Source: an uncultured Candidatus Saccharibacteria bacterium
Lineage (GTDB): Bacteria; Patescibacteriota; Doudnabacteria; UBA920
Assembly: GCA_964521955.1 (NCBI GenBank)
Contig: CAZFTX010000002.1
Span: 28,785 to 92,784, forward strand
Direction of reading: 5' to 3'
DNA: 64,000 bases
Part shown: positions 3,662 through 61,749 of the stretch, piece after piece
How the letters are laid out: every line of letters starts with the position of its first letter
How positions within the stretch are numbered: the first letter of the stretch is position 1
Position numbers and translations under genes: made by a program
Notes under the pieces: model-generated
What the model saw: only the letters and a program-made list of their open reading frames with translations
What the model was told of the DNA's origin: nothing
The model's database searches: none

Positions 3662-3710
3662 AGTAATCCCCAAGCCAAACTGCGCAGTATTTAACTCTCT
3701 ATAATAAAAG

Positions 3711-3777
3711 TGGGCAAGCATCCTTCAGGCTCAGGTCTTAACGACCCAAACCAAAATTCAGCTTGCCCACCCAGAGC
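3711..3777 (-). terminator. Hairpin GTGGGCAAGC...GCTTGCCCAC followed on the minus strand by TTTTATTAT. Putative terminator of the dinB / islet-1 transcription unit.
   Basis: Perfect 10-bp inverted repeat at 3711-3720 / 3761-3770. T-run on the minus strand. Confidence 0.45.
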
Positions 3778-3787
3778 CAGTTTGCGA

Positions 3788-4330
3788 CTAGAGCGCTAGT
3801 GACGTCTCAGCATTGACCGGGAAAAGCAGAGTATGCCCGATAGTCGCAAACCCGATCTCCCGGTTCATGACTCCACCTAGGACACTGAGAATATTCAAGT
3901 CGGTAGACCTTACCATAATTGTTAGTCCATCGACGTGGCCATTGTGCCCATCAGGTACATTTCCCAAACTCGACCAGACGCCTTCAATGAACACCCCCTC
4001 CAAAGGTGTCTCCTCCTCCACATCCTGACGACCTTCATTAATCCTTCGCACAAGCGCCATCAGATCAATCAGGATCGCGTTCATACCTCTACGTCTTACC
4101 TGCGCAGTATGTGGTAGCAAGAGCATCAACGACCGGTAAGACATGCTGGGAGACACAACTCTGATGTTGGGAACAAGAACACCCTCTGTAACAAGATCGG
4201 CAATTAGCCGTCGAGCCTTATCCGGAGAAACACCTACTGCTAAAACGATGTCATCGACTGAGGCTTGAGGGTTTCTCATGAAGGCCATCTGAACTTTCTG
4301 GCTGACTTCCTCCTTTTTTCCAGGCTTCAT
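3788..4330 (-). CDS. Hypothetical protein (180 aa) in GC-rich islet 1, with a possible HTH-like segment
   Basis: ORF with clearly higher GC than flanks. Start overlaps the upstream ORF stop (ATGA coupling). Candidate HTH segment DDIVLAVGVSPDKARRLIADLV. No family recognised. Confidence 0.4.
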   Translation of the reverse strand: MKPGKKEEVSQKVQMAFMRNPQASVDDIVLAVGVSPDKARRLIADLVTEGVLVPNIRVVSPSMSYRSLMLLLPHTAQVRRRGMNAILIDLMALVRRINEGRQDVEEETPLEGVFIEGVWSSLGNVPDGHNGHVDGLTIMVRSTDLNILSVLGGVMNREIGFATIGHTLLFPVNAETSLAL

Positions 4331-4851
4331 GACTGACGTCCTGTCTGACCGACTGCAACAAGTTGCCGAGCCGGAGGTAACAATAAAGTCTGCGATCCTA
4401 CTCCGGAGATTTGCGGCAACGATTCCACCGTAACCTCCAAAGCAATGCCCTGACGGTCAACCACAAGACATGCCCTCACCAGGCTTACAACCGCGGGCAA
4501 AATTTCGCTGGTAACTCCCCCCGGAAGCAAACCATTGATCTGATCAAGACTGTCCAGTGCTTCTAAGACAAGCTTGGTCTTCCGATTGGTCACCACCAAC
4601 ACAACTACCCAGCCCTCACCCACCAAACCATTTTTCTCTGGAAACGGCACTTTCATACCGACGATGGGCTTAAAACTGAATGTAGAACCTAAGTCCCACT
4701 TGCCTGTGCTGGCTTGTACTGCGAAGAACCAGGTTCTTTTACTGCTTCTTACCGGTCCAACTTCTTTCAGCACCTTAACTCTCTTTCTCCGCTTCTCACA
4801 ATCAAACTGACTTGCGGAAGGGAAGACAGTTATAAAAAAAATTACAACCAT
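4327..4851 (-). CDS. Hypothetical protein (174 aa, possibly shorter from M at ~4657) in GC-rich islet 1
   Basis: GGAAGGA about 5 nt before the ATG. Candidate promoter TTGACC-N18-TAAAGT upstream on the minus strand. The C-terminal half vaguely resembles a Roadblock/LC7-type fold (very tentative). Confidence 0.35.
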   Translation of the reverse strand: MVVIFFITVFPSASQFDCEKRRKRVKVLKEVGPVRSSKRTWFFAVQASTGKWDLGSTFSFKPIVGMKVPFPEKNGLVGEGWVVVLVVTNRKTKLVLEALDSLDQINGLLPGGVTSEILPAVVSLVRACLVVDRQGIALEVTVESLPQISGVGSQTLLLPPARQLVAVGQTGRQS

Positions 4852-4962
4852 TTTTCCTTCCGCAAATTTACCAAAATCCCCCTTAAAATTGACTCTATAC
4901 TTTACCTCAAAACCTCTATCTGGGTCAAGCCAAAATCGCCCTTCAACCCTGTACCCTAAAAG

Positions 4963-6345
4963 TTATATTTCCTTCACCCTGCCAAAACCCACACTATCCC
5001 TAAAAACTTTACCTGACTTTAAAACCGGAGCGCGTAAGATTGTAAACTCCCCGTATTTGTTGTTAATTTGGTCTAAAGCTTCACAAAGCTTTTTATTCTC
5101 CTCTCTGTGTCCAAACAAACTTAACTGCTGGCTGTAAGGCCGCAAATTAGCCACTGTAACACCAATAAGCTTAAACCCCCACTCCCCTTTAGGTTGCACT
5201 TGTTTAAAAATTGTTTTTGCTTGCAAAAAAATTTCCCGGCCTTCGGAAATAAAGTCTCCCAACTTTAAACTATTACCAAAACTTCGGTAGTTTTTGTCAT
5301 AACTAAAAAAATGCAAAACGTTGCCCTCTAAACCCTTTCTTCTCAACCTCCTCCCGACCATTTCACAAAGTTTATAAAGCACGGGAATAAAAAATTCCGG
5401 CTTTCTAAACTCTTTAGGCAAAGTGTACATGTGACCAATGGATTTTAACTCTTGATCCTGTTTTACATGTGCCTTCCAGCTAGAGCTTAACTGGCCTAAA
5501 TTGTACAAATGGTGTCCTTGCACGGGTCCAAATCGCCTGACCAAATGGCTCTTGGGATAATTTTTTAAATCCTCTAAGGTTTTAATACCTAAAGCGTATA
5601 AGTTTTTCTCCTGCCTATGTCCTATACCGGGTACGTCTGTAAGCTTAAGCTGTTTATATAAATCATTAGTAGTAAAACTTAAAGCTCCCAAATTTTCCAT
5701 TTTGATTTTTTCATTTTCATTTTCAGTAACGACTACTATTCCGTCCGGTTTTTTTAAGTCTGAACCAATTTTCGCCAAGGTTTTGTTTGAAGCTATGCCC
5801 ACAGAACAAGTTAAAACCTCCCCCATTTCTTTCTTCATTTGCAACTTAATGACTTTGGTAATTTTTACTGCTTCAGTAAATGGATCTACATAATTTTCTG
5901 ATTTATTGATTAACTGATTTAATGATTTTCGCTCATCAATTGAAGAATTGTTATTTAAAATTTGATATTTGTTTGATATTTGGTACTTGTTATTTGGCAT
6001 CCTGATATTACAAACTTTTGTAATATCCAAAAACACTTCGTCTATACTGTAAACCTCTACCAAAGCAGTAAATTCCGAAACCACCTTTACCATAGCTCTA
6101 TGGTAAAACCTATACCTTTCGGCCTGGGTATGGACTAAAACAATCTTCGGGCAAAGTTTTTTTGCTTCCCAAACCGGAGTTCCGGTTTTAATACCCAACT
6201 TTTTTGCTTCACGACTGGGGGAAATAATAATTCCACCCAAGTGTTCGCAGACCCCAACCGGTTTACCTCTAAGTTCGGGGTTGTCTGCTTGGGCAACCGA
6301 AGCAAAAAAACTATTCATATCTAAATGCAAAATGATTTGTTGCAT
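4963..6345 (-). CDS. dinB: DNA polymerase IV (Y-family translesion polymerase)
   Basis: 460 aa. N-terminal MQQIILHLDMNSFFASV and overall Y-family pattern. Contains a low-complexity NKYQISNKYQILNNN insert encoded by the direct DNA repeat tttgatatttg. Confidence 0.85.
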   Translation of the reverse strand: MQQIILHLDMNSFFASVAQADNPELRGKPVGVCEHLGGIIISPSREAKKLGIKTGTPVWEAKKLCPKIVLVHTQAERYRFYHRAMVKVVSEFTALVEVYSIDEVFLDITKVCNIRMPNNKYQISNKYQILNNNSSIDERKSLNQLINKSENYVDPFTEAVKITKVIKLQMKKEMGEVLTCSVGIASNKTLAKIGSDLKKPDGIVVVTENENEKIKMENLGALSFTTNDLYKQLKLTDVPGIGHRQEKNLYALGIKTLEDLKNYPKSHLVRRFGPVQGHHLYNLGQLSSSWKAHVKQDQELKSIGHMYTLPKEFRKPEFFIPVLYKLCEMVGRRLRRKGLEGNVLHFFSYDKNYRSFGNSLKLGDFISEGREIFLQAKTIFKQVQPKGEWGFKLIGVTVANLRPYSQQLSLFGHREENKKLCEALDQINNKYGEFTILRAPVLKSGKVFRDSVGFGRVKEI

Positions 6346-6645
6346 ACAAATAAATTATTCTAATTAACCTAATTTCCCTGCCTTGCCGGCAGGCAGGTAA
6401 TTACTCTAAAACTGCAACCCCTTAGAACAATTAGGTCAATTAGAGCACTTAGGTTAATTCTTGAATTATTAGGTGTTCATTCGTTCACCCTTTGTAGTTA
6501 TAATAAAACAGCCTTTTAAAGCTGTCAATTTAGATTCCTGAAGCTCGGGCTTTGCCCGGCTGAAGGAAAACAATATGGAAAAGGGAGGCCGAGCGTTAGC
6601 GAGGATTTGGAAGGGAAAAACCTATAGGTTTTTCACTCCAAGGAT

Positions 6646-44430: not shown

Positions 44431-44433
44431 TAG

Positions 44434-45111
44434 TTATGCTTTTTCTACTACACTTTTCTTAGCTTCAACATTTTTTTCCTGGAAAACATCACCTTTGTAA
44501 ATCCATACCTTTACACCAACAGTTCCGTAAGTAGTGTAAGCTGTACTTCGAGCAAAATCAATCTCAGCTCTTAAAGTATGTAAAGGAATTTTTCCTGAAG
44601 AAAGGTGTTCAGTTCTGGCAATTTCTGCGCCATTGAGCCTACCACCAATTGCAACTTTTGCTCCCTTAGCGCCGGCATTCATAACTTGTTCCAAAGCTTG
44701 CTTCATGAGTCTTCTGAAAGCTACGCGTTTTTCAATCTGTTCTGTAATAAAGTCGGCAATAACTTGAGCTTGAAGGTTAACTTCCCGAATCTCCTCTATA
44801 TTAATCTTCAATTCTTTCTTAATATTCAACTTAGCCTTAACCTTCTTCTTTAAATCTTCAATTCCTGCGCCACCTTTACCAATAATCAAACCCGGTTTAG
44901 TAGTTTTAATAACCACAGTAATTGTTCCATCGTTAAAGCGTTCAATATCAACTCTAACTAACCCGGCCTTTTTAAGATGTTTTTCCAAATAAGTACGAAT
45001 TTTAACGTCTTCCTGAAGCTGTTCTCTGTAAGCGCCACGAGAAAACCACTTGGATTTCCAAGTATCGGTAATTTTAAGTCTTAATGAAGTTGGGTTAATC
45101 TTATGTCCCAT
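44434..45111 (-). CDS. rpsC: 30S ribosomal protein S3
   Basis: KH domain and S3 C-terminal domain. Confidence 0.9.
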   Translation of the reverse strand: MGHKINPTSLRLKITDTWKSKWFSRGAYREQLQEDVKIRTYLEKHLKKAGLVRVDIERFNDGTITVVIKTTKPGLIIGKGGAGIEDLKKKVKAKLNIKKELKINIEEIREVNLQAQVIADFITEQIEKRVAFRRLMKQALEQVMNAGAKGAKVAIGGRLNGAEIARTEHLSSGKIPLHTLRAEIDFARSTAYTTYGTVGVKVWIYKGDVFQEKNVEAKKSVVEKA

Positions 45112-45125
45112 AAATCTTTACTAAT

Positions 45126-45230
45126 TACGAATCAATACTAATTTACGAATTGGTTAATAAATAAGGTTTTTTTTAGAATCAGGAATTAGTATATTCGTAC
45201 TAATTCGTAATTCGTAAAAAGTTATTCTCC
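45126..45230 (-). repeat. Family-1 repeat (rpsC-rplV spacer)
   Basis: As for the family. Confidence 0.7.
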
Positions 45231-45797
45231 CGACTTTCTGTTAAAGAGTCTGCGCTTTTGAGTAACTGTGTTCATCTTTCTTTGTTCGTCAGTCTTAATT
45301 ACTCTCTGCTTCTTTACTTCCTTAACTTTCTTTTCACCTTCAACTGCTTGTTCCGGTATCTTACCTTCCACTACTTCGTCTTTCTTTGCTTTTAAGAAGT
45401 CTAAATTCCTGCCGGCCTTTTTACCTTTCGCTACTTTTTCTTCCAAAACAATGTTTATATGAGACATCTTTCTGCGGATAACGAAAGCACTGCCACGAGC
45501 TCTTGGAAAATATCTCTTCATTACTTTACCCATGTCGGCGGTAATGCTTTTAATAACTAAACTTGCCGGGTCTAAGGCAAAGTTATGTTGAGCGTTGGCA
45601 ACTGCAGACTTAATAAGTTTTAAAACCATTGGGGCAGCTTTTTTGGTCGTATGCTGAAGTTCTACCATTGCATCCACTACGTTCATACCTTTGACCAAGT
45701 TTGTAACCAATCGCACCTTTCGTGGCGCAATATGAAGATCCTTGGCAAATGCCGTGACAAGTTTTGGGGTATTAAGTTTTTTAATTGCTGCGGTCAT
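45222..45797 (-). CDS. rplV: 50S ribosomal protein L22 (with extended basic C-terminus)
   Basis: L22 core plus about 70 aa Lys/Glu-rich tail. Confidence 0.85.
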   Translation of the reverse strand: MTAAIKKLNTPKLVTAFAKDLHIAPRKVRLVTNLVKGMNVVDAMVELQHTTKKAAPMVLKLIKSAVANAQHNFALDPASLVIKSITADMGKVMKRYFPRARGSAFVIRRKMSHINIVLEEKVAKGKKAGRNLDFLKAKKDEVVEGKIPEQAVEGEKKVKEVKKQRVIKTDEQRKMNTVTQKRRLFNRKSGE

Positions 45798-45906
45798 GTA
45801 CGTAATTGATCAAGATTAAATAAGATTTATTGATTGACAATGATTTAAATTGCAGTAATTTTTGTCATTCTTGGCAATTTTGATCATTTTTGGTCATTTA
45901 CTTTAC
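45798..45906 (-). repeat. Family-2 repeat (rplV-rpsS spacer)
   Basis: As for the family. Confidence 0.7.
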
Positions 45907-46235
45907 TTCTTGGCTGGTGTCTTTGCTTCATCCATCTTAGCTTTTTCTGCTGCGGCGGCTGCTAACTCTTGGTCTTTAGCCATTTTACCACCATGACGGT
46001 TAAACTTACGCGTTAAAGCAAATTCACCCAATTTATGTCCAACCATATTTTCAGTCACAAAAACTGACACGTGAGTTCGGCCATTATGCACTAAAAAAGT
46101 AAATCCGACAAACTCAGGTGCAATAGCCGAATCCCTAGACCAAGTTTTAATTTGGTCCTTGCCGGCTTTGCCTGCCAAAACTTTTTTTACAAGTTTTGGG
46201 TCAATATATGGTCCTTTTTTTAAACTTCTAGACAT
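45903..46235 (-). CDS. rpsS: 30S ribosomal protein S19
   Basis: Translation plus position. Confidence 0.9.
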
Positions 46236-46237
46236 AT

Positions 46238-46322
46238 TTTTACTAATTACGAATTTTAATAAATAGGTTGTTTCTTTAGAATCAAGAATTAGTATATTCG
46301 TACCAATTCGTAATTCGTAAAA
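46238..46322 (-). repeat. Family-1 repeat, internally deleted copy (rpsS-rplB spacer)
   Basis: Both terminal inverted repeats retained; middle shortened. Confidence 0.6.
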
Positions 46323-46324
46323 AA

Positions 46325-47161
46325 CTACTTGCTTCTGCGCTTAATAATCATGTGGTTACTGTATTTCTTCTTAAGTCTGGTCTTAACACCCATTGCATGT
46401 TTACCCCACGGAGTCTTTGGATACTTCATACCAATTGGGTTATGACCTTCACCACCACCATGAGGGTGATCTACCGGGTTCATGGCTTTACCACGAACAG
46501 TTGGACGTATGCCCATGTGTCTGGACCTACCGGCTTTTCCAATTCTGACATTCATCCAGTCTGCGTTAGCTAACTGACCCATAGTTGCAGCACAAGTGTC
46601 TTTAATCTTGCGAATTTCACCTGAAGGCATTTTCAAAAGTGCATAACCTGCTTCCATGTTCTGTAAAATAGCATAAGCACCGGCACTGCGAGCAATTCTT
46701 CCGCCTTGGCCCGGAGCTAACTCAATGTCGTGAATAAAACTTCCAACCGGAATATTTTTTAAAGCTAAACGGTTACCGGGTAAAATTTCAGCTGTGTCAC
46801 TAAACATAACTCTGTCACCAACTTTTAAACCTTGTGGGGTTAAAATATAGCGCTTTACACCGTCCGCATATGCAAGTAAGGAAATAAAAGCGGTACGTCC
46901 CGGGTCGTATTCAACGGTCTTAACTAAAGCTGGAACATTCTTTTTATCTGTTCTGGAAAAATCTAAAATTCTAAGTTTTTTTCTTGCACCGCCGCCATGA
47001 TGTCTAACACTAATTTTTCCGCTGTTGTTTCGGCCACCAGCTCTGCCTTTAGCAACTACCATCCCTTTTGGGGTTTTGGACTTTTTATGCAATACCGAAT
47101 AGTCGGTCACACTGTGAATGCGCCTGCCTGCGGATGTTGGTTTGTAAAGTTTAACGGCCAT
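46325..47161 (-). CDS. rplB: 50S ribosomal protein L2
   Basis: Translation plus position. Confidence 0.9.
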
Positions 47162-47243
47162 AATATTTTAGTTGAAAGTTATCAGGTTATAAAGTTTTTA
47201 AAGTAATTACTTGATGAACTTGAAGGACTTTATAAACTTGTTA

Positions 47244-47600
47244 CTAAACTGCTTCAGCTGTGGCAATTCTGTCACCTTTTCTTAAAGTTACAATTGCTTT
47301 CTTAAAGTCAGAAGTTCTACCGGCCATGTTTTTAAAATTCCTTGTCTTGCCTTGCATCTTAACAATATTGACTCTGACAACTCTAACTTTATAGGAAGTT
47401 TCAATAGCTTTTTTAACTTCAATCTTGTTGGCTTTATTGGCAACCACGAAAACATACTTGTCTTGACTGTTGAGCTTTGTGGCTTTTTCGGAAATTCTTG
47501 GCTGCACAATCACTGACTGTAGCGCAACTGAAGACATTAAGACTTCTTGGGAAGCCTCTTGTTTCTCTGGGGTTTCAGTTTTTTTAGTAAATAAAGCCAT
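47244..47600 (-). CDS. rplW: 50S ribosomal protein L23 (possibly starting at the internal Met, ~47537)
   Basis: Translation plus position. Confidence 0.8.
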   Translation of the reverse strand: MALFTKKTETPEKQEASQEVLMSSVALQSVIVQPRISEKATKLNSQDKYVFVVANKANKIEVKKAIETSYKVRVVRVNIVKMQGKTRNFKNMAGRTSDFKKAIVTLRKGDRIATAEAV

Positions 47601-47692
47601 AAACTAATTTAAAATCCTAATTATTCGAATTCGTATCCCAATGCTCCGAAAATTTTATTTGGATCATTAGGATAGAATTAGGGTTATTCGGA

Positions 47693-48352
47693 TTATGTTG
47701 TCTTCTTAATATCTTTTAAATATGTTTTTTCAATTACTGCAAGACTGTCTTTAAAAACTAACAAGCTATCAGACTTTAAAACATCCACCACATTCATACT
47801 GTTAGCTAACATATAGTTAATTCCCGGAACGTTTCTTAAAGCACGGGAAATGTTTTTATCGCTCTTAGGGACAACTAGAGTAACTTTTGTACCAATTTCC
47901 TTAATCGCTTTTTTAAAACCGGCTAAAACTTTAACAAATTCTTTAGTCTTCACTGGTTCTAAAACTATTCGGTCAACAACCACAAAATTTCCGTGTTTAA
48001 CCTTGTCTGAAACGCACATAAACAAAGCCTGTTTTTTAGCTTTCTTATTTATCTTCAATTCCCAGTTACGGCTTGCTCTTGGACCAAAAGTCACACCACC
48101 ATGTCTCCAAATAGGACTGCGGATACTACCAACGCGGGCTCTACCTGTTCCTTTTTGCTTCCAGGGTTTTTTACCACCACCGGCAACTTCGCCTCGAGTT
48201 TTGGTGTTTGAAGTCCCTTTGCGAGCACCTCTTTGCTGAATCCTTACCGCTTCTGCAACCAAATGTTCTTTTGGAGCAACGCCAAAAATCTTGGAATTGA
48301 GTTCCACTTCACCAACATTTTCAGCTTTTTGGTTATAGACTGGTAATTTCAT
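47693..48352 (-). CDS. rplD: 50S ribosomal protein L4
   Basis: Translation plus position. Confidence 0.9.
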   Translation of the reverse strand: MKLPVYNQKAENVGEVELNSKIFGVAPKEHLVAEAVRIQQRGARKGTSNTKTRGEVAGGGKKPWKQKGTGRARVGSIRSPIWRHGGVTFGPRASRNWELKINKKAKKQALFMCVSDKVKHGNFVVVDRIVLEPVKTKEFVKVLAGFKKAIKEIGTKVTLVVPKSDKNISRALRNVPGINYMLANSMNVVDVLKSDSLLVFKDSLAVIEKTYLKDIKKTT

Positions 48353-48353
48353 A

Positions 48354-48432
48354 CTTTACTAATATACGAATCTTTAATAAATAAGTTTTTTCTTTGGAAT
48401 CAGGAATTAGTATATTCGTACTAATTCGTAAA
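48354..48432 (-). repeat. Family-1 repeat, 5'-truncated copy (rplD-rplC spacer)
   Basis: Right half and right terminal inverted repeat retained. Confidence 0.6.
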
Positions 48433-48434
48433 AA

Positions 48435-49124
48435 CTATTTCTTCTTTTTCCCATCTGACTCCGGTTCAGATTTGGTTAAGGGTTTTACTTTACCGGTAGA
48501 AATTATTCTAACAAAGCCGTTTCTATGTCCAGGTACTGCACCTCGCAAGCTAATTAAATTCTTTGCAGGGTCCACTTCTACCACCTGGAGATTTTTTACA
48601 GTTACTTGCTCAACACCCATATGTCCGGACATTCTTAAACCTTTACGAGTATGTTGAGGAAACCTTTGACCAATAGAACCTACTGACCTTGGCTTGTTAT
48701 GACCGTGAGAAGCCGGAAACCCTTTAAAGCCGTGTCTCTTCATGGCACCGGCAAAACCGCGGCCTTTTGAAACACCCACTACGTTTACCAACTCACCAAC
48801 CTGAAAACCGGACAAGTCTAGTTTTTGGCCACGTTCCATTTTACCTTCCGGAGAAGTTCTAAACTCTGCTAAAACAGAAAAAGCGCCCAAATCCTTCAGG
48901 TGACCTGAAAGTGCTTTAGATGCTTTTGCTTTTTTGCCGTCCTTTGAAACTTTTTTTGGTCCAATACCAACCTGCACTGCGTTGTATTTGTCCTTGCCTT
49001 CAGCAGTTTTAACTTGTGTCACGGTCATGACCCCGGCCTTAATAACAGTAATAGGAAAAGCCTCACCAGTTTTCTGGTCAAAATATTGACTCATATTTAG
49101 CTTTTTTCCTAAGGCAAAGTTCAT
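48435..49124 (-). CDS. rplC: 50S ribosomal protein L3
   Basis: Translation plus position. Confidence 0.9.
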   Translation of the reverse strand: MNFALGKKLNMSQYFDQKTGEAFPITVIKAGVMTVTQVKTAEGKDKYNAVQVGIGPKKVSKDGKKAKASKALSGHLKDLGAFSVLAEFRTSPEGKMERGQKLDLSGFQVGELVNVVGVSKGRGFAGAMKRHGFKGFPASHGHNKPRSVGSIGQRFPQHTRKGLRMSGHMGVEQVTVKNLQVVEVDPAKNLISLRGAVPGHRNGFVRIISTGKVKPLTKSEPESDGKKKK

Positions 49125-49147
49125 ATAAATAAGTTAGGGCTTAAGCA

Positions 49148-49247
49148 TTAATCCAAGTGCGAGGCATTTTCCTGAGGATTTTACGAGCCGTAGCTGAGCT
49201 ACGGTGAGGAAAACCTTGAGGGAAATAACGAAGCAATTGGATTAAAC
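49148..49247 (+). repeat. Family-3 repeat inside the unusually long (342-nt) rpsJ-rplC spacer. Inverted partner of 30515-30616.
   Basis: Hand alignment at about 87% identity. Spacer also has hairpins GACCGGC-tcc-GCCGGTC and GCGGGC-tttta-CCCGC. Confidence 0.6.
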
Positions 49248-49466
49248 CTGGCTTTAGGACCGGCTCCGCCGGTCAGAAAGACAGGGGTGCGTAAGTCCTA
49301 AAATAAAAGCGGGCTTTTACCCGCAATAATAAATAGAGAAAATTCTCTTTTACTTATGTAGGTAAATCGTTCTCTAGTATGCTGAGCTTAAAAGCTTTGA
49401 CTTACTAGAACTAATCTACAATTATTAAATATCTGTGTAATCTGTTTTTTATCAGTGTATCAGTGG

Positions 49467-49805
49467 TTAACTCATTTTAATCTCTACATCCACACCAGCC
49501 GGTAAGTTCAAATTTGTGAGTGCGTCTATGGTTTTAGGTGTAGCTTCTAAAATATCTATAAGTCTTTTATGCACGCGCATTTCAAACTGCTCACGACTGT
49601 CTTTGTGCACAAAAGTTGACTTTAGCACAGTATATTTCGTCTTTTCAGTCGGCAAAGGAATAGGACCAGAAATTCTGGCACCTGTTCTTTTCGCAGTATC
49701 CACAATTTGCTTAACGCTTTGGTCAATAAGCTTATGGTCATAAGCCCTGACTTTTATGCGGATTTTTGCGCCTTGGGCGGTTTCTACTTTAGCTGTCTTT
49801 TGCAT
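49467..49805 (-). CDS. rpsJ: 30S ribosomal protein S10
   Basis: Translation plus position. Confidence 0.9.
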
Positions 49806-49985
49806 TGAGTGATAATGTGCAAATTAAAAATTGGCTTTAAAATGTCTAGCCACTTGCAATAGTTTATAGGAACTTTATGCTTTTGTCAAATAAACATAGG
49901 AGTAAAAACCAAGAAAAAATAATGATTTGATATATTGACAAATATAATATTTTGTGCTATAATATAACCTATTAACTCCTTTTAG

Positions 49986-50630
49986 TTAAGAGGGTTTTTT
50001 GTTTTTATATTTCATCGTTATTGAGTCTTTATGTCGGTGATAAATATATGATGGAAAGTTTACTTTCAATATTTTCGCTTTACTTTTGATCACTGTTTGG
50101 AAAAATACAGAATCGTTACCATATGCTTCGTTTGGAAAATATCCAACTTTTTTAAATATTTCTTGCTTTACTACAAAAGTACCCCCGAGAGCCACTTCAT
50201 TAACATGTATCAACTTTCCTGGACGAAACTTATCTGGCACAAATTCTTCTCCAATAGTCTTTACACCCCCATACAAAAAATCAATCTCTGGGTTTTTCTT
50301 TAAAATCTCCTTTCTAAAAGCCAAATGATCAGATGAATACTCATCGTCATCGTCTAAAAAAGTAACGTACTTACCTTTTGCTTTTTCTATGCCTAAATTC
50401 TTAGAGATTGCCGAACCAACATGATCATGATTAAAATATATGATATTTTTATTTTCTTTTAAAATCTGAGTAATTTTTTGCGATAGCTCAAGATTTCCTG
50501 AATCATCAGAAATAATTAACTCCCAATTGTTCTCTGTTTGAGCCAATACCGAATCAATTGCCCTAACAAGCTTTTTGGGTCTATTATATGCTGAAATAAT
50601 TACTGAAAAGAATGGTTGTGTTTTTTTCAT
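49986..50630 (-). CDS. Family-2 glycosyltransferase (short, 214 aa)
   Basis: FSVIISAYNR...DDSGN...DDDD motifs of GT2. Confidence 0.65.
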   Translation of the reverse strand: MKKTQPFFSVIISAYNRPKKLVRAIDSVLAQTENNWELIISDDSGNLELSQKITQILKENKNIIYFNHDHVGSAISKNLGIEKAKGKYVTFLDDDDEYSSDHLAFRKEILKKNPEIDFLYGGVKTIGEEFVPDKFRPGKLIHVNEVALGGTFVVKQEIFKKVGYFPNEAYGNDSVFFQTVIKSKAKILKVNFPSYIYHRHKDSITMKYKNKKPS

Positions 50631-50648
50631 AGGATACTTATTATAACA

Positions 50649-50682
50649 AAACTCCGCCCCTTATGGGGCGGAGTTTTGTTAC
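50649..50682 (-). terminator. Terminator hairpin AACTCCGCCCC-ttat-GGGGCGGAGTT plus T-run, 3' of tuf
   Basis: 11-bp perfect stem read directly. Confidence 0.7.
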
Positions 50683-50720
50683 TGTGTTAATCAGTAACTA
50701 TCCGTGTTTATCGGTTTTAA

Positions 50721-51902
50721 TTACTTAATAATTTTTGTGACAACTCCGGCACCTACAGTTTTACCACCTTCACGAATAGCAAACTTACCTTTTTCTTCCA
50801 AAGCAACTGGAGTAATAAGTTTTACAACTAACTTTACAGTATCACCAGGCATAACCATTTCCTGACCTTCAGGCAATGTTACGTCTCCGGTTACGTCTGT
50901 GGTTCTTACGTAAAACTGTGGTTTATAACCTTTAAAGAAAGGAGTGTGGCGTCCGCCTTCTTCTTTGCTTAGAACGTAAACTTCAGTTTCAAATTCAGTG
51001 TGAGGGTTAATACTTCCCGGTTTGCAAAGCACTTGTCCGCGCTCAACTTCGTCTTTCTTTGTACCGCGAAGCAAAATACCAGCATTGTCACCGGCCATAC
51101 CACTGTCTAACTGTTTGTTGAACATTTCAATACCGGTTACAACGGTTTTTGAAGTTGGTCTTAAACCAACAATTTCTACTTCTTCGTTAATCTTAATCTG
51201 ACCACGTTCAATTCTCCCTGTAACCACGGTACCCCGGCCTTCAATAGAGAAAATATCTTCAATAGGCATTAAGTAAGGCTTGTCAGTTTCGCGAACTGGG
51301 TCAGGAATGTAGGAATCCAATTTAGAAACTAATTCCAAAATAGTTTTTTCGTATTCAGCGTCACCTTCCAAAGCTTTCAAAGCACTTCCGCGAATAATTG
51401 GGGTGTCTTTGCCTGGAAATTCATATTTAGTCAAAAGGTCGCGAATTTCTTCTTCAACCAAGTCCAAAAGTTCTTTATCTTGAACCATGTCACACTTGTT
51501 CATGTAAACCACAATGTAAGGCACACCAACTTGGCGAGCTAACAAAATGTGTTCACGAGTTTGAGGCATAGGACCGTCTACAGCAGAAACAACCAAGATA
51601 GCGCCGTCCATTTGAGCGGCACCAGTAATCATGTTCTTAATATAGTCAGCGTGTCCAGGACAGTCTACGTGAGCGTAGTGTCTTTTTTCTGATTCATATT
51701 CTACGTGAGCGGTGTTAATAGTAATACCGCGAGCTTTTTCTTCAGGAGCGTTGTCAATGCTGTCATAAGCACGAGCTTTAGCTCCACCAGTCTTTGCTAA
51801 AACAGTGGTAATCGCCGCTGTTAAAGTGGTCTTTCCATGGTCAACGTGACCAATGGTTCCTACGTTGACGTGGGTCTTGGAACGGTCAAACTTATCTGCC
51901 AT
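50721..51902 (-). CDS. tuf: Elongation factor Tu
   Basis: [22 protein letters not shown]. Confidence 0.95.
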
Positions 51903-52160
51903 TTTTTTACCTTTCGTTGTCGTCCGCCAACTGGCGGATCACGACATATCGCCCGAGACCCCCTCACTACTACATCTATCGACTAAACGATGCAGTGCCG
52001 AGGGTATCTCTTTCTTTCCTTTCGGAATCCAGGGCTAAAATTAATTGTTTGCTAAAACTTATTTTAATGATATTTATGCATTCTGTCAATTATGCTTGTT
52101 AGCCTATCAGTGGATCAGAAATACTGATTAGCTGATTTGCTGACTAGCTGATTAACTAAA

Positions 52161-52550
52161 CTACAAATCGTCTATATCTACCTTCGGACCTTCAAAGTCA
52201 AAGCTAGGGTCAATAACTTCTTCGCGCAAATCCACACGAATATGATTGGTTGATTGACTGACTTGTTGATTTACTGATTTATTGATTGGCTGATGAGCTG
52301 ATTGGCTAATTTGCTGATCGGCTAATTTGCTGATCGGCTGATCGGCGGTTGTGTCCCTGAGCTGTGCTTCTATTATTTTTCGGTTGATATTTTCAACTTC
52401 ATTTACCTGTTTTTGCAATTTACCTAAAAGCAATTTTTGATATTCTTCTAAAGGTAAAATAACTAACTTAGCCTCCCCCGTTTCGTCCAAGACAAAAAAC
52501 TTTCCCCCGTCAGCTTTTGCTAAGTTGATTAAGTCCTGAATTGAAGCCAT
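52161..52550 (-). CDS. Hypothetical protein with a C-terminal low-complexity Q/S-rich 8-aa repeat encoded by a 24-nt repeat (8-nt sub-period TGATYGGC)
   Basis: N-terminal 70 aa look globular. DNA array at 52241-52360 read directly. Confidence 0.35.
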   Translation of the reverse strand: MASIQDLINLAKADGGKFFVLDETGEAKLVILPLEEYQKLLLGKLQKQVNEVENINRKIIEAQLRDTTADQPISKLADQQISQSAHQPINKSVNQQVSQSTNHIRVDLREEVIDPSFDFEGPKVDIDDL

Positions 52551-52637
52551 ATTTACAAGCTTAAAATGTAAATCTCAAAATGTAAAATGTAGGTGCCCCA
52601 AAGGGACTCTATAATTTTCCATTTTGATTTTTCAATT

Positions 52638-54761
52638 TTACATTCCCTTACGTACATTGATCCCCGCTCTACTTTCAATAATTCCTGCAGCAACGTTCTT
52701 TGGTACTTCAGCGTAGTGGTCAAATTCCATAGTGTAAGAAGCTTGACCTTGAGTCATGCTTCTTAAAGCAGTAGCATAACCGAACATTTCAGAAAGCGGT
52801 ACAAAAGCGTCTATGACTTTTAAGTGCAAACGGTCTGTCATTTCGTTTATTTGAGCACGCTTGCTATTTAAGTCTCCAATCACGTCACCCATGTTGGTTT
52901 CTGGAGTTATAACTTCAACTTTCATTACCGGTTCCAAAATAATTGGAGTTGCTTTTTTCACAGCGTCTTGCAAAGCTTTGGAAGCAGCAATTTTGAAGGC
53001 CATTTCAGAAGAGTCAACTTCGTGGTAAGAACCGTCGTAAACAGCAGCTCTAAAGTCTACAAGTGGGTAACCGGCAATCACACCATTTGCTGCAGATTCT
53101 TGAATACCTTTGTCGATTGGTTTTATGTATTCTTTTGGAATAACACCACCAACAATTTCATCCAAAAACTCGTAACCTTTTCCGCGTTCCAAAGGCTCCA
53201 CACGGAGGTACACATGACCGTACTGACCACGTCCACCAGTTTGGCGAATGTACTTATTTTCAGCCTCAGCAGTTTGTTTGATAGTTTCTTTGTAAGCAAC
53301 TTCAGGCTTACCAACATTAGCTTCAACTTTAAACTCGCGCTTCATACGATCAACAATAATTTCCAAATGAAGCTCGCCCATACCGGCAATAATTGTCTGT
53401 TGAGTTTCTTCGTTAGTAGAAAGCCTAAAAGTTGGATCTTCTTCTGCAAGTTTTTGCAAAGCAATACCCATTTTTTCCTGGTCAGCTTTAGTCTTAGGCT
53501 CAATAGCCATGGAAATAACCGGTTCAGCAAATTTGATTGATTCCAATTGAATAGACTTTTCCACGTCACACAAAGTGTCTCCGGTAAAAGTATTTTTTGG
53601 TCCTACCAAAGCACAAATATCACCGGCAAAAACTTCTTTCACTTCATCTCTTTGATCAGCGCGCATTCTTACAATACGTCCAACACGTTCTTTGTCTCCG
53701 GTTCTGGCGTTTAATACGTAACTACCAGCTTCCAATTTTCCAGCATAAACACGGAAAAAACAAAGCCTGCCCACAAAAGGGTCGGTCGCAATCTTAAAAG
53801 CTAAAGCTGTGAAAGGTTCGTCGTCGTTTGGTTTTCTTTCAATTTCAGCATTGGTTTTTAAGTCGTGGCCTTTAACCACGCCTCTGTCTACAGGATTTGG
53901 TAAAAAGTTAGTGACCGCGTCTAAAACTGTCTGTACAATAATCCCACGACCGTCCCCACCCAACACTGGGAAAAACTTAGCACTCTGAACAGCTTTACGA
54001 ATTGCGGTTAAAAACTCTTGTTCGGTCAATTCCTGACCAGCCAAATATTTTTCCATTAAAGCGTCGTCTGACTCCACAACTTTTTCTAAAAGTTTGTGTC
54101 TGTATTCTTTAGCTTTTTCTAACATGTCAGCCGGGACTTCACCTATAGTAAACTCTTTGTCTGTGTAGTCTTTGTAGGTGTAAGCCTTCATGTTAATTAA
54201 GTCAACTACGCCTTTAATTTCTTTTTCAAAACCAATTGGCAATTGAATTGGAAAAGCGTTTGGAGAAAGTCTTTTGTGAATAGAGTCCAAGCTCTTGTAA
54301 AAATCTCCGCCAGTTTGGTTAATTTTGTTTATAAAACACATGCGAGGCACGCCGTATTTGTCGGCTTGGCGCCAGACGGTTTCACTCTGAGGTTCTACAC
54401 CCATTTTGCCGTCAAAAACCGTAACAGCCCCGTCTAACACACGCAAACTGCGCTCTACTTCTACAGTAAAATCCACGTGACCCGGAGTGTCGATAATGTT
54501 AATTTTGTGTTTTACATCACCTGCAAGTTTAATAAACTTCGGCGTCCAATAACAAGTCACCGCGGCCGCAGTAATGGTAATACCACGTTCGCGTTCTTGC
54601 TCCATCCAATCTGTAGTGGTTTCACCTTCGTGCACCGCACCAATTTTGTGAATCATACCGGTATTAAACAAAATACCTTCTGTAACAGTAGTTTTACCCG
54701 CGTCGATGTGGGCAATAATTCCTATGTTTCTAGTTACGTCTATGGGATATTCTCGAGACAT
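52638..54761 (-). CDS. fusA: Elongation factor G
   Basis: [17 protein letters not shown], 707 aa. Confidence 0.95.
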
Positions 54762-54928
54762 ATATAAGTTAGCTTATAGCTGATAGCTTGTAGCTTATTA
54801 GCTTTAAAAAATTAATAATACTTTTATTTCTTTTCCGAGACTTCGGATTTATTCCGAGCCGAGGATATTTTTTTGGAAAAGATGCTAGAAGGAAAACCTT
54901 TTTTCTAAAAAGGTGGTCCTTTTACACC

Positions 54929-55456
54929 CTACCTTCTGTTAAACCTAGCAAAGTGAGCAAACGCCTTGTTTGCTTCTGCCATACGGTGAACGTCTTCTCT
55001 CTTTTTCATAGCTGCACCTTGTTTGTTGTAAGCATCCATAATTTCACCGGCAAGCTTTTCTTTCATTGGAGCGCCTTTTTTAGCTTTAGCTGCGGCAATC
55101 ACCCAGCGCATACCAAGTGTTGTTTTTCTGGGTTCCAAAACTTCCATTGGCACCTGGTAGTTAGCGCCACCAATTCTTCGGCTCTTTAATTCCATTAAAG
55201 GAGAAACATTTTTCAAAGCTATGTCGAAAACTTGTCTGCCTTCCAACTTCTTTTCAGGTGCGTCAGCATTTGGAGAAGCTTCAACTTCAGTTAGTTTTTT
55301 AGTAACAATATCTAAAGCGTCGTAGAAAATTTTACGGGCAACGTTCTTCTTGCCTCTTTCCATGAGATAGTTTATAAATTTTGCATATTTAACACTCCCA
55401 TATTTTGGGTCCGGGTCTGGAGTGTGTTTGTCGTAACTTCGTGATTTTCTTGGCAT
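54929..55456 (-). CDS. rpsG: 30S ribosomal protein S7
   Basis: Translation plus position. Confidence 0.9.
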   Translation of the reverse strand: MPRKSRSYDKHTPDPDPKYGSVKYAKFINYLMERGKKNVARKIFYDALDIVTKKLTEVEASPNADAPEKKLEGRQVFDIALKNVSPLMELKSRRIGGANYQVPMEVLEPRKTTLGMRWVIAAAKAKKGAPMKEKLAGEIMDAYNKQGAAMKKREDVHRMAEANKAFAHFARFNRR

Positions 55457-55561
55457 AAACTAATTGATCAAGATTAAATAAGATTTAATGATTGACCATG
55501 ATTTTAATTGCATTAATTTCTGGCAATTTTGTTCATTTTTGGTCAATTTTGTTCATTTGAA
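55457..55561 (-). repeat. Family-2 repeat (rpsG-rpsL spacer)
   Basis: As for the family. Confidence 0.7.
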
Positions 55562-55975: not shown

Positions 55976-56339
55976 AAGAATTAATTTGAGAAGACCAAAC
56001 CTACGGTTTTTTCTTCTCAATACTCATCTTTTTCCCTTAGCTGTTTCCTCGGCCTCGGAGTAAGTCCGCTGGCCTTAGAGCTATTAATTAATTTATTAAT
56101 TTGCACAATAAAAACTGATTATAGACATCAGTTTACGCCTACTTCGCTTGTTTAGGTACTCTCCCGAAACCAGTGGGAGTAACTTCCCTAACAAATCGAC
56201 AAAATTGAGTAATTCGTTCACAAAGTGTTTTGTGAATGGGTTTCTTATTCAATTGCTATAAATTATACCCTATTTACACCAAATGTCAAATGTGATATTT
56301 TACTTAGTCGTATCACAACGAAATCTAGGGAGGACCAGA

Positions 56340-56680
56340 TGGAGATATGTTATAAACTAGTATGGGAAGGGTCTAGAGGACGTGGTCCCGACAACCAAGT
56401 TTTGATTGGGTTGCAGGTCTACCGATACCTGCCACCGGTCGAACACATGTACCTTGAATTTCCAACCAAGAAATCAAAGGAGCAACCTGAGGAGGACATC
56501 TTTACCCCAACCTTCATAGTCACGGAATACAGAAACAGAGCTGACACAGGCGAAACAACCCTGTGCTTATTGCTTATCCAAGACGCGACCATGCCTCAAG
56601 AGCAAAAACTGCTTGAGCAAAGAGCTGTCATTCAAATTCTCCGTAAGGACTACGACTGGAAGTGGGGCAACCCCTACTAA
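56340..56680 (+). CDS. Islet-3 hypothetical protein (113 aa)
   Basis: GGGAGGA 4 nt before ATG (MEICYKLVWEG...). GC-rich. The N-terminal extension in the ORF track (from 56225) is AT-rich and lacks an SD. Confidence 0.45.
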
Positions 56681-56701
56681 GCCACACAACCGCGCACAAG
56701 A

Positions 56702-56748
56702 AAGCGCCCCGACAATAGCACGTCAGGGCGCTTCGTTTTTTTTATTCG
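56702..56748 (+). terminator. Rho-independent terminator AAGCGCCC...GGGCGCTT plus T8
   Basis: Read directly after the islet-3 ORF. Confidence 0.6.
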
Positions 56749-59102: not shown

Positions 59103-59120
59103 TTAAATATTTTAGCATAA

Positions 59121-59155
59121 AAAAGCGAAGAGGACGGGAACCTACGGTAGGTTCG
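59121..59155 (-). terminator. Terminator hairpin GAGGACG-GGAACCTAC-gg-TAGGTTC-g-CGTCCTC plus T-run (minus strand), 3' of islet-4 ORF 1
   Basis: Read directly. Confidence 0.6.
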
Positions 59156-59201
59156 CGTCCTCGGATGTTCTCGTGCATATGACGCTGTTGTATGACTGGT
59201 G

Positions 59202-59534
59202 TCACTTCAGCTGCATGAATGAGGGTAAGTGATTCCTGCGAAAGTCACCAATCAACTTAGGATCCATAAATCGGAAACCCAATTTGTTTGCCACTTCAGC
59301 AATGCCATTGGTGCTCACCACGATGATTTGGGGTTTCCCCATGAGATTCATCTTAGAAACCCTTTCCAAAAGGGAGGAATCTTTGGTGTACAACAACAGT
59401 AGTTTGCACCCAGAGATTTTCTCTTTGTCGGGACTCAGAAACTCAATCTCCCCCTGAAATTGGATTGGTAATTCACAGGCAAGCCAATGAACTACTGCCA
59501 GGTTCGCTCCTTCACCACACACGGCAACTTTCAT
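59202..59534 (-). CDS. Islet-4 hypothetical protein 1 (110 aa from MKVAVCGEG)
   Basis: GAGGAGG 5 nt before ATG. GC-rich. Weak N-terminal similarity (MKV..GEIE) to the neighbouring ORF. Confidence 0.45.
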   Translation of the reverse strand: MKVAVCGEGANLAVVHWLACELPIQFQGEIEFLSPDKEKISGCKLLLLYTKDSSLLERVSKMNLMGKPQIIVVSTNGIAEVANKLGFRFMDPKLIGDFRRNHLPSFMQLK

Positions 59535-59812
59535 TTCGTCCTCCTCAGGATGTTTTCTCACAAAAAAATAACTCCGAAATTCGGAGTTATATTACTGGGA
59601 GAAAAATATATTGATTACCGCTGTTTGGGCGGTTTTTTGTTCTGAAATTCTGTTTTATTGAATCTCTTTTCATGTAGTTCTTAAAAAGCAGAATACACCA
59701 ACTAAAACCTTATGTCAAATTTTTATCTGCGGATAAACGAATTAATACAAGATTACACTGATAAAAAGAACCTCGCGGACAAGCCGCGAGGCGAGAAAGT
59801 ACAAAGGAGTCT

Positions 59813-60061
59813 TTACTCTCGAAGAATGCGAAATTCGAATCCGCAAAGTGCGCTAATGTCGTTCTGGGTGATTCCATTCTCGTTTGGCAACAAGCACAAA
59901 ACGCGACCTATTTCACCCGGCTCAATGGCCTGAACGAAAAACCTAACAGGTTCCCGGTTAAAGGCCTCAACAGATACTTCAGAGCCGACATAAGGCAGCT
60001 CTTTCAATTCAATCTCCCCATGAAGATCTGGAGGCCCTAAAACAATGATTGGCACTTTCAT
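59813..60061 (-). CDS. Islet-4 hypothetical protein 2 (82 aa from MKVPIIVLG)
   Basis: AAGGAGAG 5 nt before ATG. Terminator hairpins CCTCGCGG-acaag-CCGCGAGG (59771-59791) and AACTCCGAA-at-TTCGGAGTT (59570-59588) follow on the minus strand. Confidence 0.45.
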   Translation of the reverse strand: MKVPIIVLGPPDLHGEIELKELPYVGSEVSVEAFNREPVRFFVQAIEPGEIGRVLCLLPNENGITQNDISALCGFEFRILRE

Positions 60062-60140
60062 CAAGTCTCTCCTTTACAGAACCAGAATAACACAAATACT
60101 CCAATACTAGCGAGTATTGGAGTATTTGTTGATTAATATA

Positions 60141-60627: not shown

Positions 60628-60703
60628 AATGGTCGGGATGCCGGGAATTGAACCCGGTCTACATGCACCCCATGCATGCGTACTGCCGGTATACTACATC
60701 CCG
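60628..60703 (-). tRNA. tRNA-Pro (anticodon GGG), CCA encoded
   Basis: Hand-folded cloverleaf: acceptor CGGGATG/CATCCCG, anticodon stem CATGC/GCATG with loop AUGGGGU, T-arm CCGGG-TTCAATT-CCCGG. Confidence 0.8.
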
Positions 60704-60744
60704 ATCATTTGAAAACAACAATGCTAATTATACAAAACTAACTT

Positions 60745-60840
60745 AAAATATGCGAATAAAAAAGAAAGCGCCCGGGAACTTTCTGGTCTTCAGAATCTAG
60801 CTAGGTGGTCTGAAGAACCTTACTTTTCCCGGGCACATCC
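60745..60840 (-). terminator. Long imperfect hairpin (GCCCGGGAA...TTCCCGGGC with inner GGTCTTCAGA/TCTGAAGAACC) plus TTTCTTTTTTATT on the minus strand. Terminator of the islet-5 genes.
   Basis: Read directly. Confidence 0.5.
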
Positions 60841-60941
60841 GCAAGGTCGCTATGTCTACTGGTACGGCTCCACGAAAGAGCCTGCTTGGTGGAAACAAAG
60901 CGCCTTACGAAACTTGAAGATGATGAGTATTTAAAGAGTGC

Positions 60942-61151
60942 TTAGTCCATGCGCTCTTCCCAGCCTTTGCGGTCGCGGACTTGTTGCATCTCTACACACC
61001 TCTCAGTGAGGCTAGTGTTTGCAGGCTTTTGATGGCTGGTGCTCATTTGTTTCAGCCTGCCAAGCTTTTCTGTAGCGGCAGTTGCCTGAACGAAAATTCC
61101 CACATTTGAGGTGCCTAGAGGGACACCTCGCTCATCTCCATTCATATTCAC
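60942..61151 (-). CDS. Islet-5 hypothetical protein (69 aa)
   Basis: AGGAGG 6 nt before ATG. GC-rich. Confidence 0.4.
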   Translation of the reverse strand: MNMNGDERGVPLGTSNVGIFVQATAATEKLGRLKQMSTSHQKPANTSLTERCVEMQQVRDRKGWEERMD

Positions 61152-61417
61152 CTCCTGGTGATTGTATTTGTGATTTTGGCGGGCAGATGTATCGTAACCC
61201 TAAGGCGCTTCTCCGCAGATCCTTTGTTAAAGGGACCGCAGGGAACTATAGCCGGTAAGTTTTCGCTCTGTGGACCGAAAGGTCCGATACATTCGCACTT
61301 TCGTGCCCTGCCCATACTTGTAGGACGATTCCTGGTTTTCAGGACCGTCCGAATCTTTGCAAGCTTGAATGCTCGCGACTTTGTATAAAAATCATTTTTA
61401 CACAATGTCTCAAGCAC
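61148..61417 (-). CDS. Islet-5 ORF (89 aa, very basic). May instead be a structured leader RNA.
   Basis: ORF overlaps multiple hairpins (GGACG..CGTCC, GGACC-tttc-GGTCC). No SD. Confidence 0.2.
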   Translation of the reverse strand: MLETLCKNDFYTKSRAFKLAKIRTVLKTRNRPTSMGRARKCECIGPFGPQSENLPAIVPCGPFNKGSAEKRLRVTIHLPAKITNTITRR

Positions 61418-61749
61418 TAAATTTTTTATCCAACTTCGTTTACCTCAAGTAGACTTCGTCGATTCGCCGCTAAGATGCAAAATATTAATATTGGCGAAAA
61501 AAATACCCCTTTTTGAGGGGCAGGTTCAAATTTCTTTTCTTCTTTAAAAACCTTAACCCCTAAATTTCACAGCCCAAGACAAAGTCTTGACCAAGACCTT
61601 GCTAAATGGAATGCAAATTGGAGTAAAATGTTTATTCATACCTCGTTGGCAATATTACACCTGTTAAAAAAAGCTGTCAAATAAATTATCCACACGCCTT
61701 CGCCAAGGCTTCGGCGTGCAAGCACTCTTAATCCTTAAGATTGCATGAA

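Follow-up and report, generated by a model that had tools for sequence, protein, structure and literature searches.

Shine-Dalgarno-led gene islets in a Patescibacteria chromosome whose core genes lack the signal

We analyzed a 64,000-nucleotide stretch of chromosome from an uncultured member of the CPR (the candidate phyla radiation, or Patescibacteria), deposited as a Candidatus Saccharibacteria bacterium (assembly GCA_964521955.1, contig CAZFTX010000002.1, positions 28,785 to 92,784; hereafter, the window), and found that five short islets hold nine open reading frames (ORFs) that stand apart from the native genes. The core genes have no Shine-Dalgarno (SD) sequence, whereas six of the islet ORFs carry a strong and well-placed one, and all nine are outliers in base composition and codon usage. 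These observations support the view that the islet genes are a class distinct in both composition and translation signal. With moderate confidence, we favor the explanation that a mobile or phage gene pool supplied the islets as moron-like cassettes, which are replaced at conserved intergenic sites and have kept the SD and the composition of that pool.

Translation signals and composition of the islet genes

ORFs were called mechanically, and the SD score was the duplex energy (dG) of the -20 to -3 region of each start against ACCUCCUUU. For 72 native ORFs, the pairing had a mean of -0.9 and a median of -0.05 kcal/mol, weaker than at 3000 random positions of the window (mean -1.7), and none of the 36 native ORFs of at least 200 aa had an SD of dG -8 or lower. 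This bears out what an earlier sequence-only reading of this DNA had said of the native genes. Their upstream regions were A/T-rich and G-poor, with a T at -1 in 69% of cases. The same reading had described a TA-rich hexamer often abutting the native ATGs; -10-like hexamers within 12 nt of these ATGs were only about 2-fold enriched, and a dominant leaderless mode for the core genes is unsupported. In two Patescibacteria metagenome-assembled genomes (MAGs) of GC 0.51-0.57 (L043 and L045), several housekeeping genes had a -10-like box (TATACT, TATGAT, TATAAT-like) 6-10 nt before the ATG, which suggests that leaderless transcripts may be made in those lineages; the signal in the window was far weaker.

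The free-energy scan of the starts, which the sequence-only reading had proposed as a check, separated six islet ORFs from the native genes. In these, a purine-rich complement of CCUCC lay 4-7 nt before the start, within the 4-9 nt expected for SD-dependent initiation, with dG values of -8.8 to -11.6 (Table 1). A canonical SD had been ascribed to every uncoupled islet ORF, and this stands for the six but not for ORF 4327..4851, whose AAGGA is weak (-6.3). ORF 3788-4330 (-4.4) is coupled to the latter through an ATGA overlap, as had been stated. The second ORF thought to be coupled in this way, 61148..61417, turned out to begin with GTG, to have no SD and to lie upstream of the next ORF, ending between the SD and the ATG of the latter. 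Because its GC at the first codon position (GC1) is lower than at the second (GC2) and it has no SD, it is probably the 5' leader of the following ORF and not a gene. Some islet starts listed earlier were also misplaced, the true ones being 56339, 59534 and 61145.

The placement of the motif was specific. There are 20 copies of AGGAGG on both strands of the window, and only four have an ORF-opening ATG 5-6 nt downstream, all four in the islets (7.5% of the window). A value of -8.8 is reached at only 3% of islet positions; for six of nine starts to reach it, the binomial P is about 6e-8.

The GC shift reported for the islets was confirmed. In 300-nt segments, GC was 0.50-0.57 at 3700-4800 and 27500-28800, and 0.47-0.51 at 56300-56900 and 60800-61400; at 59200-60064 it was only 0.45-0.46, against a window average of 0.38. 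The GC content at third codon positions (GC3) was 0.316 +/- 0.052 in native genes (n = 63) and 0.46-0.66 in islet ORFs (z +2.7 to +6.6), and the codon usage of all nine islet ORFs fitted worse than the native minimum (z -3.8 to -9). Thus, all nine fall outside the host range in both composition and codon usage, as small acquired islets do; atypical base composition of acquired genes is textbook knowledge. The coding-type pattern of GC1 > GC2 was found in eight of the nine islet ORFs, the exception being 61148-61417.

Cassette architecture, replacement between strains and recurrence

Consensus scans of islets 3, 4 and 5 found a promoter-like site, a leader of 40-150 nt and a GC-rich terminator right behind the ORF. 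Judged by these consensus promoters and terminators, the units would be autonomous in the way of phage morons. The leader of islet 4a has a hairpin at 59590-59568 (minus strand), and islet 5 sits immediately upstream of the tRNA-Pro gene (60703-60630). In islet 2, a hairpin element (CCCTTCTAAGTT...AAAAGGG, then TAAAACCCTA; dG -16 to -17) occurs at 27993-28039 and 28249-28295, and it is also present twice in the related locus L001 (9118-9230 and 9921-9975). It precedes or flanks the slots of SD-led ORFs in both the window and L001; possible roles are those of a cis-regulatory leader or of a site where cassettes are exchanged by recombination or processing. The spacer between the copies (28040-28250) is rich in hairpins. 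Two independent Logan assemblies (L003 and L004) contain an identical copy of islet 2 and its flanks, which also occur in ENA and JGI contigs; this recurrence in four independent assemblies excluded the idea that the islets are assembly artefacts.

Two further observations concern the surroundings of these units. The rpsL promoter and the islet 3 promoter overlap back-to-back within 56262-56301, and the strain breakpoint described below falls exactly at the -10 box of the plus strand. Just downstream of parB, a TTGACA-17-TAATAT promoter and an intrinsic terminator (61522-61504) enclose a unit of about 140 nt (61504-61650, minus strand), the short terminated leader of islet 5, which would be a small RNA or else an ORF of 28 codons.

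The comparison across strains that the sequence-only reading had called for was carried out for islets 2 and 3, and it showed ORF replacement in both. In L001, whose nucleotide identity to the window is 83-89%, ORF-B of islet 2 was kept and ORF-A was absent; the promoter-proximal slot held a different, SD-led ORF of 166 aa, located between copies of the hairpin element and resembling the C-terminal domain of the RNA polymerase alpha subunit (NCBIfam, 7.6e-15). A closer strain (L005, 97-99% identity) followed the window as far as position 56297, which falls within the -10 box of the islet 3 promoter, and from 56298 onward it had an unrelated, AAGGAG-led ORF in place of that of islet 3. Islets 2 and 3 are therefore present, absent or replaced among relatives. 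A metagenome scan with the DoxX-like neighbor gave no close strain that would cover islets 1, 4 and 5 (best identity 62% or less).

ORF-B allowed a closer look at the age of a cassette. Against L001, its synonymous divergence (dS) was 0.205, and that of seven flanking native genes was 0.35-1.0; its ratio of nonsynonymous to synonymous divergence (dN/dS) was 0.46, compared with 0.02-0.08 in the flanking genes. ORF-B is therefore coding and fast-evolving, and it appears to be younger or later exchanged than its surroundings; the low dS with a high dN/dS is consistent with later exchange or acquisition. A search of 5.8 billion proteins retrieved just two relatives of ORF-B, with 81-83% identity and both at the same locus, and a scan of a genome collection gave no match.

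The phenomenon is not confined to this lineage. In five loci from other species or genera (L008, L009, L011, L012 and L015), the long genes likewise lacked an SD, and small AGGAGG-led, GC-enriched ORFs were found in the M50-rpsL, rpsG-fusA and fusA-downstream gaps; these were often on the opposite strand and nearly all mutually unrelated. Over 55 Patescibacteria loci, about 10% of ORFs were SD-led by a liberal test; their GC3 was in excess by a median of +0.044 (Mann-Whitney p = 1.3e-7), most of all in ORFs of less than 150 aa. The earlier suggestion of a recent acquisition needs changing: since ORF-B lies at the same site in diverged relatives, since other genera have unrelated SD-led ORFs at these hot spots, and since SD and raised GC3 go together over the 55 loci, the islets reflect long-running cassette turnover and not a single recent event. 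As for the coherent accessory gene set proposed earlier, strain variability (islets 2 and 3) and a common architecture were found, but an all-versus-all comparison of the nine islet ORFs revealed no shared similarity. They are coherent in architecture alone. That the islets encode related proteins was rejected, as the all-versus-all comparison of SD-led ORFs gave almost no shared families.

Part of these data could be read in another way, in which the islet ORFs are native, lineage-specific, fast-evolving small genes of a cell that retained its anti-SD sequence, with the strong SD serving special regulation, as in the core gene rpsU, the best-known SD-bearing gene of the SD-poor Bacteroidota, and with the high GC stemming from mRNA structure or selection and not from foreign origin. 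ORF-B keeps its site and an intact SD in L001, SD-led small ORFs recur at the same hot spots clade-wide, and there are no mobility genes; moreover, the SD-poor Bacteroides ovatus keeps its anti-SD and has an SD on about 3% of its genes (PMC6028130). Yet the codon usage of the islets goes far beyond the native range at synonymous sites, the dS of ORF-B is below that of its flanks, whole ORFs have been exchanged for unrelated ones between strains of 97-99% identity, and the ORF-A family occurs in viral contigs. On balance, we regard a native class of genes as unlikely, although it is the strongest of the competing origins.

Table 1. Coordinates and start signals of the islets, of native comparison features and of ORF-A family members in other genomes (positions refer to the window; dG in kcal/mol).
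Feature	Position	Strand	SD motif and spacing to start	dG	Remarks
Islet 1	3704..4860	-			two ATGA-overlapping ORFs; GC 0.49-0.50; GC3 z +3.2 / +3.8; codon-fit z -4.1 / -7.3
Islet 1 ORF 4327-4851	4327-4851	-	weak GGAAGGA (AAGGA), 3 nt before start 4851	-6.3	174 aa; no known relatives
Islet 1 ORF 3788-4330	3788-4330	-			180 aa; weak winged helix-turn-helix-like N-terminus; no known relatives
Islet 1 terminator-like hairpin	3770-3704	-			read from the sequence
Islet 2 promoter	27385..27413	+			perfect TTGACA-17-TATAAT match with TG, about 100 nt upstream of ORF-A
Islet 2 ORF-A	27504..27947	+	AGGAGG (27504-27509), 6 nt before ATG 27516	-10.9	143 aa; GC3 0.66
Islet 2 spacer	27993..28295	+			210-nt GC-rich segment between two hairpin-element copies
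Islet 2 ORF-B	28313..28814	+	AGGAGG (28313-28318), 5 nt before ATG 28324	-10.3	143-aa hydrophobic protein; ends at 28755
Islet 2 terminator	28768-28814	+			strong intrinsic terminator after ORF-B; 16 bp, 12 of them GC
Islet 3	56273..56745	+	GGAGG (56329-56333), 5 nt	-10.8	promoter-like site 56273-56301; ORF 56339-56680 (113 aa); terminator 56702-56745
rpsL promoter	56289-56262	-			perfect TTGACA-16-TATAAT match, divergent from islet 3
Islet 4a	59119..59718	-	AGGAGG (59545-59540), 5 nt	-11.5	promoter 59718-59690; ORF 59534-59202 (110 aa); terminator 59160-59119; GC3 z +4.1
Islet 4b	59770..60075	-	AAGGAG, 4 or 7 nt (TTG 60064 / ATG 60061)	-8.8	ORF 60064/60061-59813 (82-83 aa); terminator 59792-59770; GC3 z +2.7
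Islet 5	60755..61680	-	AGGAGG (61156-61151), 5 nt	-11.6	promoter 61680-61652; ORF 61145-60942 (67 aa); terminator 60834-60755
Islet 5 GTG ORF	61417-61148	-	none		doubtful; stop between SD and ATG of ORF 61145
Native comparison set	38860..55550	-	none at any start		str and ribosomal-protein operons with about 25 genes; ATGs directly preceded by AT-rich, repeated spacers
ORF-A family member in L043					directly after tRNA-Trp gene
ORF-A family member in L045					directly after tmRNA gene
ORF-A family member in L044					within an island of 8 kb with about 16 small ORFs, most of them SD-led; Doudnabacteria MAG
ORF-A family member in L115					amid small ORFs, several SD-led
ORF-A family member in L116					phage-type array on a contig of 143 kb; about 28 small ORFs, tightly packed in one direction and for the most part SD-led; GC 0.54

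The ORF-A family and the source of the cassettes

A link of the islets to phages came from ORF-A. An exhaustive HMMER search found 226 remote homologues, with nine invariant columns in the family alignment. The AF2 model had a pLDDT of 89 and a pTM of 0.84, and no match to a known fold was returned by structure searches; since ORF-A is predicted to fold confidently, we take it for a real protein. Its named family members are in MAGs of Doudnabacteria, Patescibacteria or an unclassified 'bacterium'. In four of the genomes with family members (L043, L044, L045 and L115), the ORF-A relative is SD-led (-10.3 to -12.5) and has a higher GC3 than its SD-less housekeeping neighbors. Other members were found in IMG/VR viral contigs of 318, 338 and 392 kb and in phage-type arrays, one on the L116 contig (Table 1) and another with an S-AdoMet lyase gene. 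A Doudnabacteria copy is 49% identical to a phage copy. Collectively, the relatives of ORF-A appear to point to an SD-using, mobile, phage-like pool of about 54% GC, matching the composition of islet 2, and not to a cellular donor.

One of these genomes deserves a separate description. In L044 (JAIFWV010000005.1), the island with the ORF-A relative spans 4848-12853, between a DUF5715 gene and rpmF/nusB. Its ORFs are almost all unidirectional and mostly AGGAGG-led, have no Pfam match and weak PHROG hits only, and have a GC of 0.51-0.64, compared with 0.46-0.48 in the neighboring genes. It looks like a degraded integrated element.

The remaining islet ORFs gave little. Pfam, PHROGs, PADLOC and NCBIfam searches returned nothing above threshold for the nine ORFs, with weak helix-turn-helix-like matches for 3788-4330 only. 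This ORF had no relative among the 5.8 billion proteins, and ORF 4327-4851 had no homologue besides itself. Single-protein scans of a viral collection with ORF-A and ORF-B, and a tblastn search with three islet ORFs against deposited phages, gave no match, and homology searches found no donor for the eight islet ORFs other than ORF-A. No mobility domain was detected in the islet ORFs scanned, and no flanking repeat at islet 5 beside tRNA-Pro.

The sequence-only reading had proposed acquisition from an SD-using donor. The foreign, mobile look stands, both in composition and in replacement between strains, but no cellular donor was found. A direct transfer from such a cell, for example from the host bacterium of this episymbiont, with the cassettes as recent chromosomal fragments, would account for atypical GC and codon usage alongside the SD, and the GC3 of islet 2 (0.63-0.66) suits a genome of about 52-55% GC. 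Even so, we hold it to be quite improbable: ORF-B and ORF 3788 have no homologues outside the lineage in the 5.8 billion proteins, those relatives of ORF-A that carry a name come from Patescibacteria or viruses, each cassette is a complete unit of one gene between a promoter and a terminator of its own and not a random fragment, and the phenomenon recurs across genera. Since it is again Patescibacteria that account for the named ORF-A relatives, the genes are likely to stem from a mobile or phage pool and not from another SD-using organism.

We also considered whether the ORFs are spurious, in which case the islets would be non-coding RNAs with a structure of their own or the debris of decaying pseudogenes. 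GC-rich islands of AT-rich genomes are frequently structured RNAs, and some features of the islets would agree with this, namely the missing SD and the GC1 < GC2 of 61148-61417, the hairpin-rich spacer at 28040-28250, and the islet 1 ORFs, whose GC3 about equals their GC and whose SD is weak. For 61148-61417 taken alone, this reading is likely. For the islets in general it is very improbable, given the optimally spaced SD on six ORFs, the homologues and the confident fold of ORF-A, the dN/dS of ORF-B, which is below 1, and the presence of 143-180-codon ORFs, which are improbable by chance at 50% GC. Moreover, Rfam at gathering thresholds found only two tRNAs in the whole window, which argues against non-coding RNAs, and for islets 1 and 2 even relaxed thresholds brought up nothing beyond chance-level matches.

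According to the cassette explanation, translation of the core genes of this CPR chromosome would begin on leaders that are A/U-rich, G-poor and devoid of an SD, and five cassettes of 0.3-1.3 kb would occupy intergenic hot spots, one of them right beside a tRNA gene. Each cassette would be a unit made of a sigma-70-type promoter, a 5' untranslated region of 40-150 nt, an AGGAGG placed 4-7 nt before the start, an ORF of 67-180 aa that has few known relatives or none, and an intrinsic terminator rich in GC. Such cassettes would be swapped between strains by replacement at conserved sites, and would retain the composition and codon usage of the source pool as well as its SD-dependent signal for initiation, with phages as the presumed vehicle. 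The persistence of perfect, optimally spaced SDs on many unrelated cassettes and on distant members of the ORF-A family suggests that the SD is under selection, and from this we infer that the host ribosome keeps a working anti-SD and translates the islet mRNAs by SD pairing. What the islet proteins do is a guess; they might act in the interplay of host, phage and defence. A further-reaching and tentative idea is that two initiation regimes coexist in one cell, in which the inherited genome has dropped the SD and the phage-borne or cassette pool keeps strong SDs by way of an anti-SD that is still available.

Several points weigh against the cassette explanation. The strain comparison covers islets 2 and 3 only, the promoters and terminators are known as consensus matches only, and no integrase, transposase, att-like duplication or prophage backbone was found in or beside the islets. 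The phage link concerns ORF-A, one of nine islet ORFs, with no or almost no known relatives for the other eight. ORF-B is found at the same site in three relatives and is stably inherited, so a native, fast-evolving lineage gene would fit too. In addition, part of the Parcubacteria is reported to lack the anti-SD motif (Tsurumaki et al. 2022, PMC9297842); if the host belonged with them, the SDs of the islets would not work in the cell. No 16S gene was found in the window or in the comparison loci searched for its 3' end.

Genomic setting, known systems and significance

The window has a GC content of 38%, and nearly all its genes are on the minus strand. The native genes include mreB, gap, pgk, a histidine kinase, an M50 peptidase, the str operon, a long ribosomal-protein operon and a VirD4/TraG-like coupling ATPase (Pfam domains T4SS-DNA_transf and TrwB). 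A conserved DUF3048-like protein assigns the organism to the Patescibacteria; for this protein, the nearest species representatives were MAGs labelled 'uncultured Ca. Saccharibacteria' or Patescibacteria (58-64% identity), followed by Doudnabacteria MAGs (39-52%), and the gene order parA-parB ... DUF3048-M50-rpsL-rpsG-fusA-tuf is preserved in relatives.

The ribosomal-protein operon (38860-49800 and 55460-55550, minus strand) is unusual in its repeat-built spacers, as such operons are normally tightly packed. Its genes are set apart by 85-115 nt of AT-rich repeated elements, of which at least seven copies fold into long, imperfect hairpins of 35-40 bp (dG -24 to -28 kcal/mol, z -4.6 to -5.5), with the 3' arm stopping 6-9 nt ahead of the following ATG; five further copies belong to a second repeat with TTGAC-like boxes. 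Possible roles of the hairpins are those of RNase III processing sites or of internal promoters giving short-leader mRNAs in an SD-less organism. Between fusA and tuf lies a 129-aa ORF (52161-52550, minus strand) with no Pfam match and 50-55% identity in relatives, which contains an 8-nt periodic repeat at 52245-52303. The DinB-like polymerase IV ORF (4963-6345, minus strand) has a low-complexity, N/K/Q-rich insertion in the middle of the protein (...NNKYQISNKYQILNNNSS...).

Like phage morons and small acquired islets, the islets are self-contained promoter-ORF-terminator units of deviant composition that vary between strains; one of them lies beside a tRNA gene, and one protein family also occurs in phage genomes. 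Unlike these, the cassettes are located between core genes (dinB, dnaX, rpsL, M50 peptidase, parB, tRNA-Pro), even by the str and ribosomal-protein operons, and not between phage genes in a recognizable prophage; there are no integrase or att sites, and the distinguishing mark is an initiation signal that differs from that of the host core. Single-ORF cassettes exchanged at a fixed site behind a conserved promoter, as in islet 3, and the repeated hairpin element that flanks the cassette slots of islet 2 recall integron cassettes. In contrast to integrons, however, there is no attC consensus, and the cassettes have their own promoters and terminators at scattered sites; the hairpin of islet 2 reads unlike attC, and no intI integrase domain was found among the islet ORFs scanned, other ORFs of the window having been scanned in part.

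With regard to translation, SD-poor phyla such as the Bacteroidota, which form group B of GeneMarkS-2, offer a close parallel: in groups B and X, as here, core genes have A/U-rich, non-SD upstream regions and a minority has strong SDs (PMC6028130). Unlike in the Bacteroidota, the SD-bearing genes here are strain-variable, have few or no relatives and show foreign codon usage. The peculiarities of CPR ribosomes, among them the loss of the anti-SD motif in part of the Parcubacteria, are another parallel, in that the core genes of the present Patescibacteria lineage make no use of the SD; the work describing these peculiarities covers rRNA and ribosomal-protein features, and a split between an SD-less core and SD-led mobile cassettes is not described there (PMC9297842). 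Our literature searches found no description of such a split, with strain-variable and phage-linked cassettes, in the Patescibacteria.

If the explanation is correct, the presence of an SD would be a simple sequence mark of the mobilome in SD-less CPR lineages, whose accessory genes mostly lack relatives, and the reduced ribosomes of the CPR would still carry out SD pairing. It would also have consequences for gene calling, in that models trained on the SD-less majority would mis-call the cassette genes and SD-based models would mis-call the core genes. There is a possible tie between small CPR genes without relatives and the gene families of huge phages. Finally, if two initiation regimes do coexist, mobile genes could have privileged or conditionally gated access to the ribosome, and these islets would offer a route to studying the evolution of SD-independent initiation.

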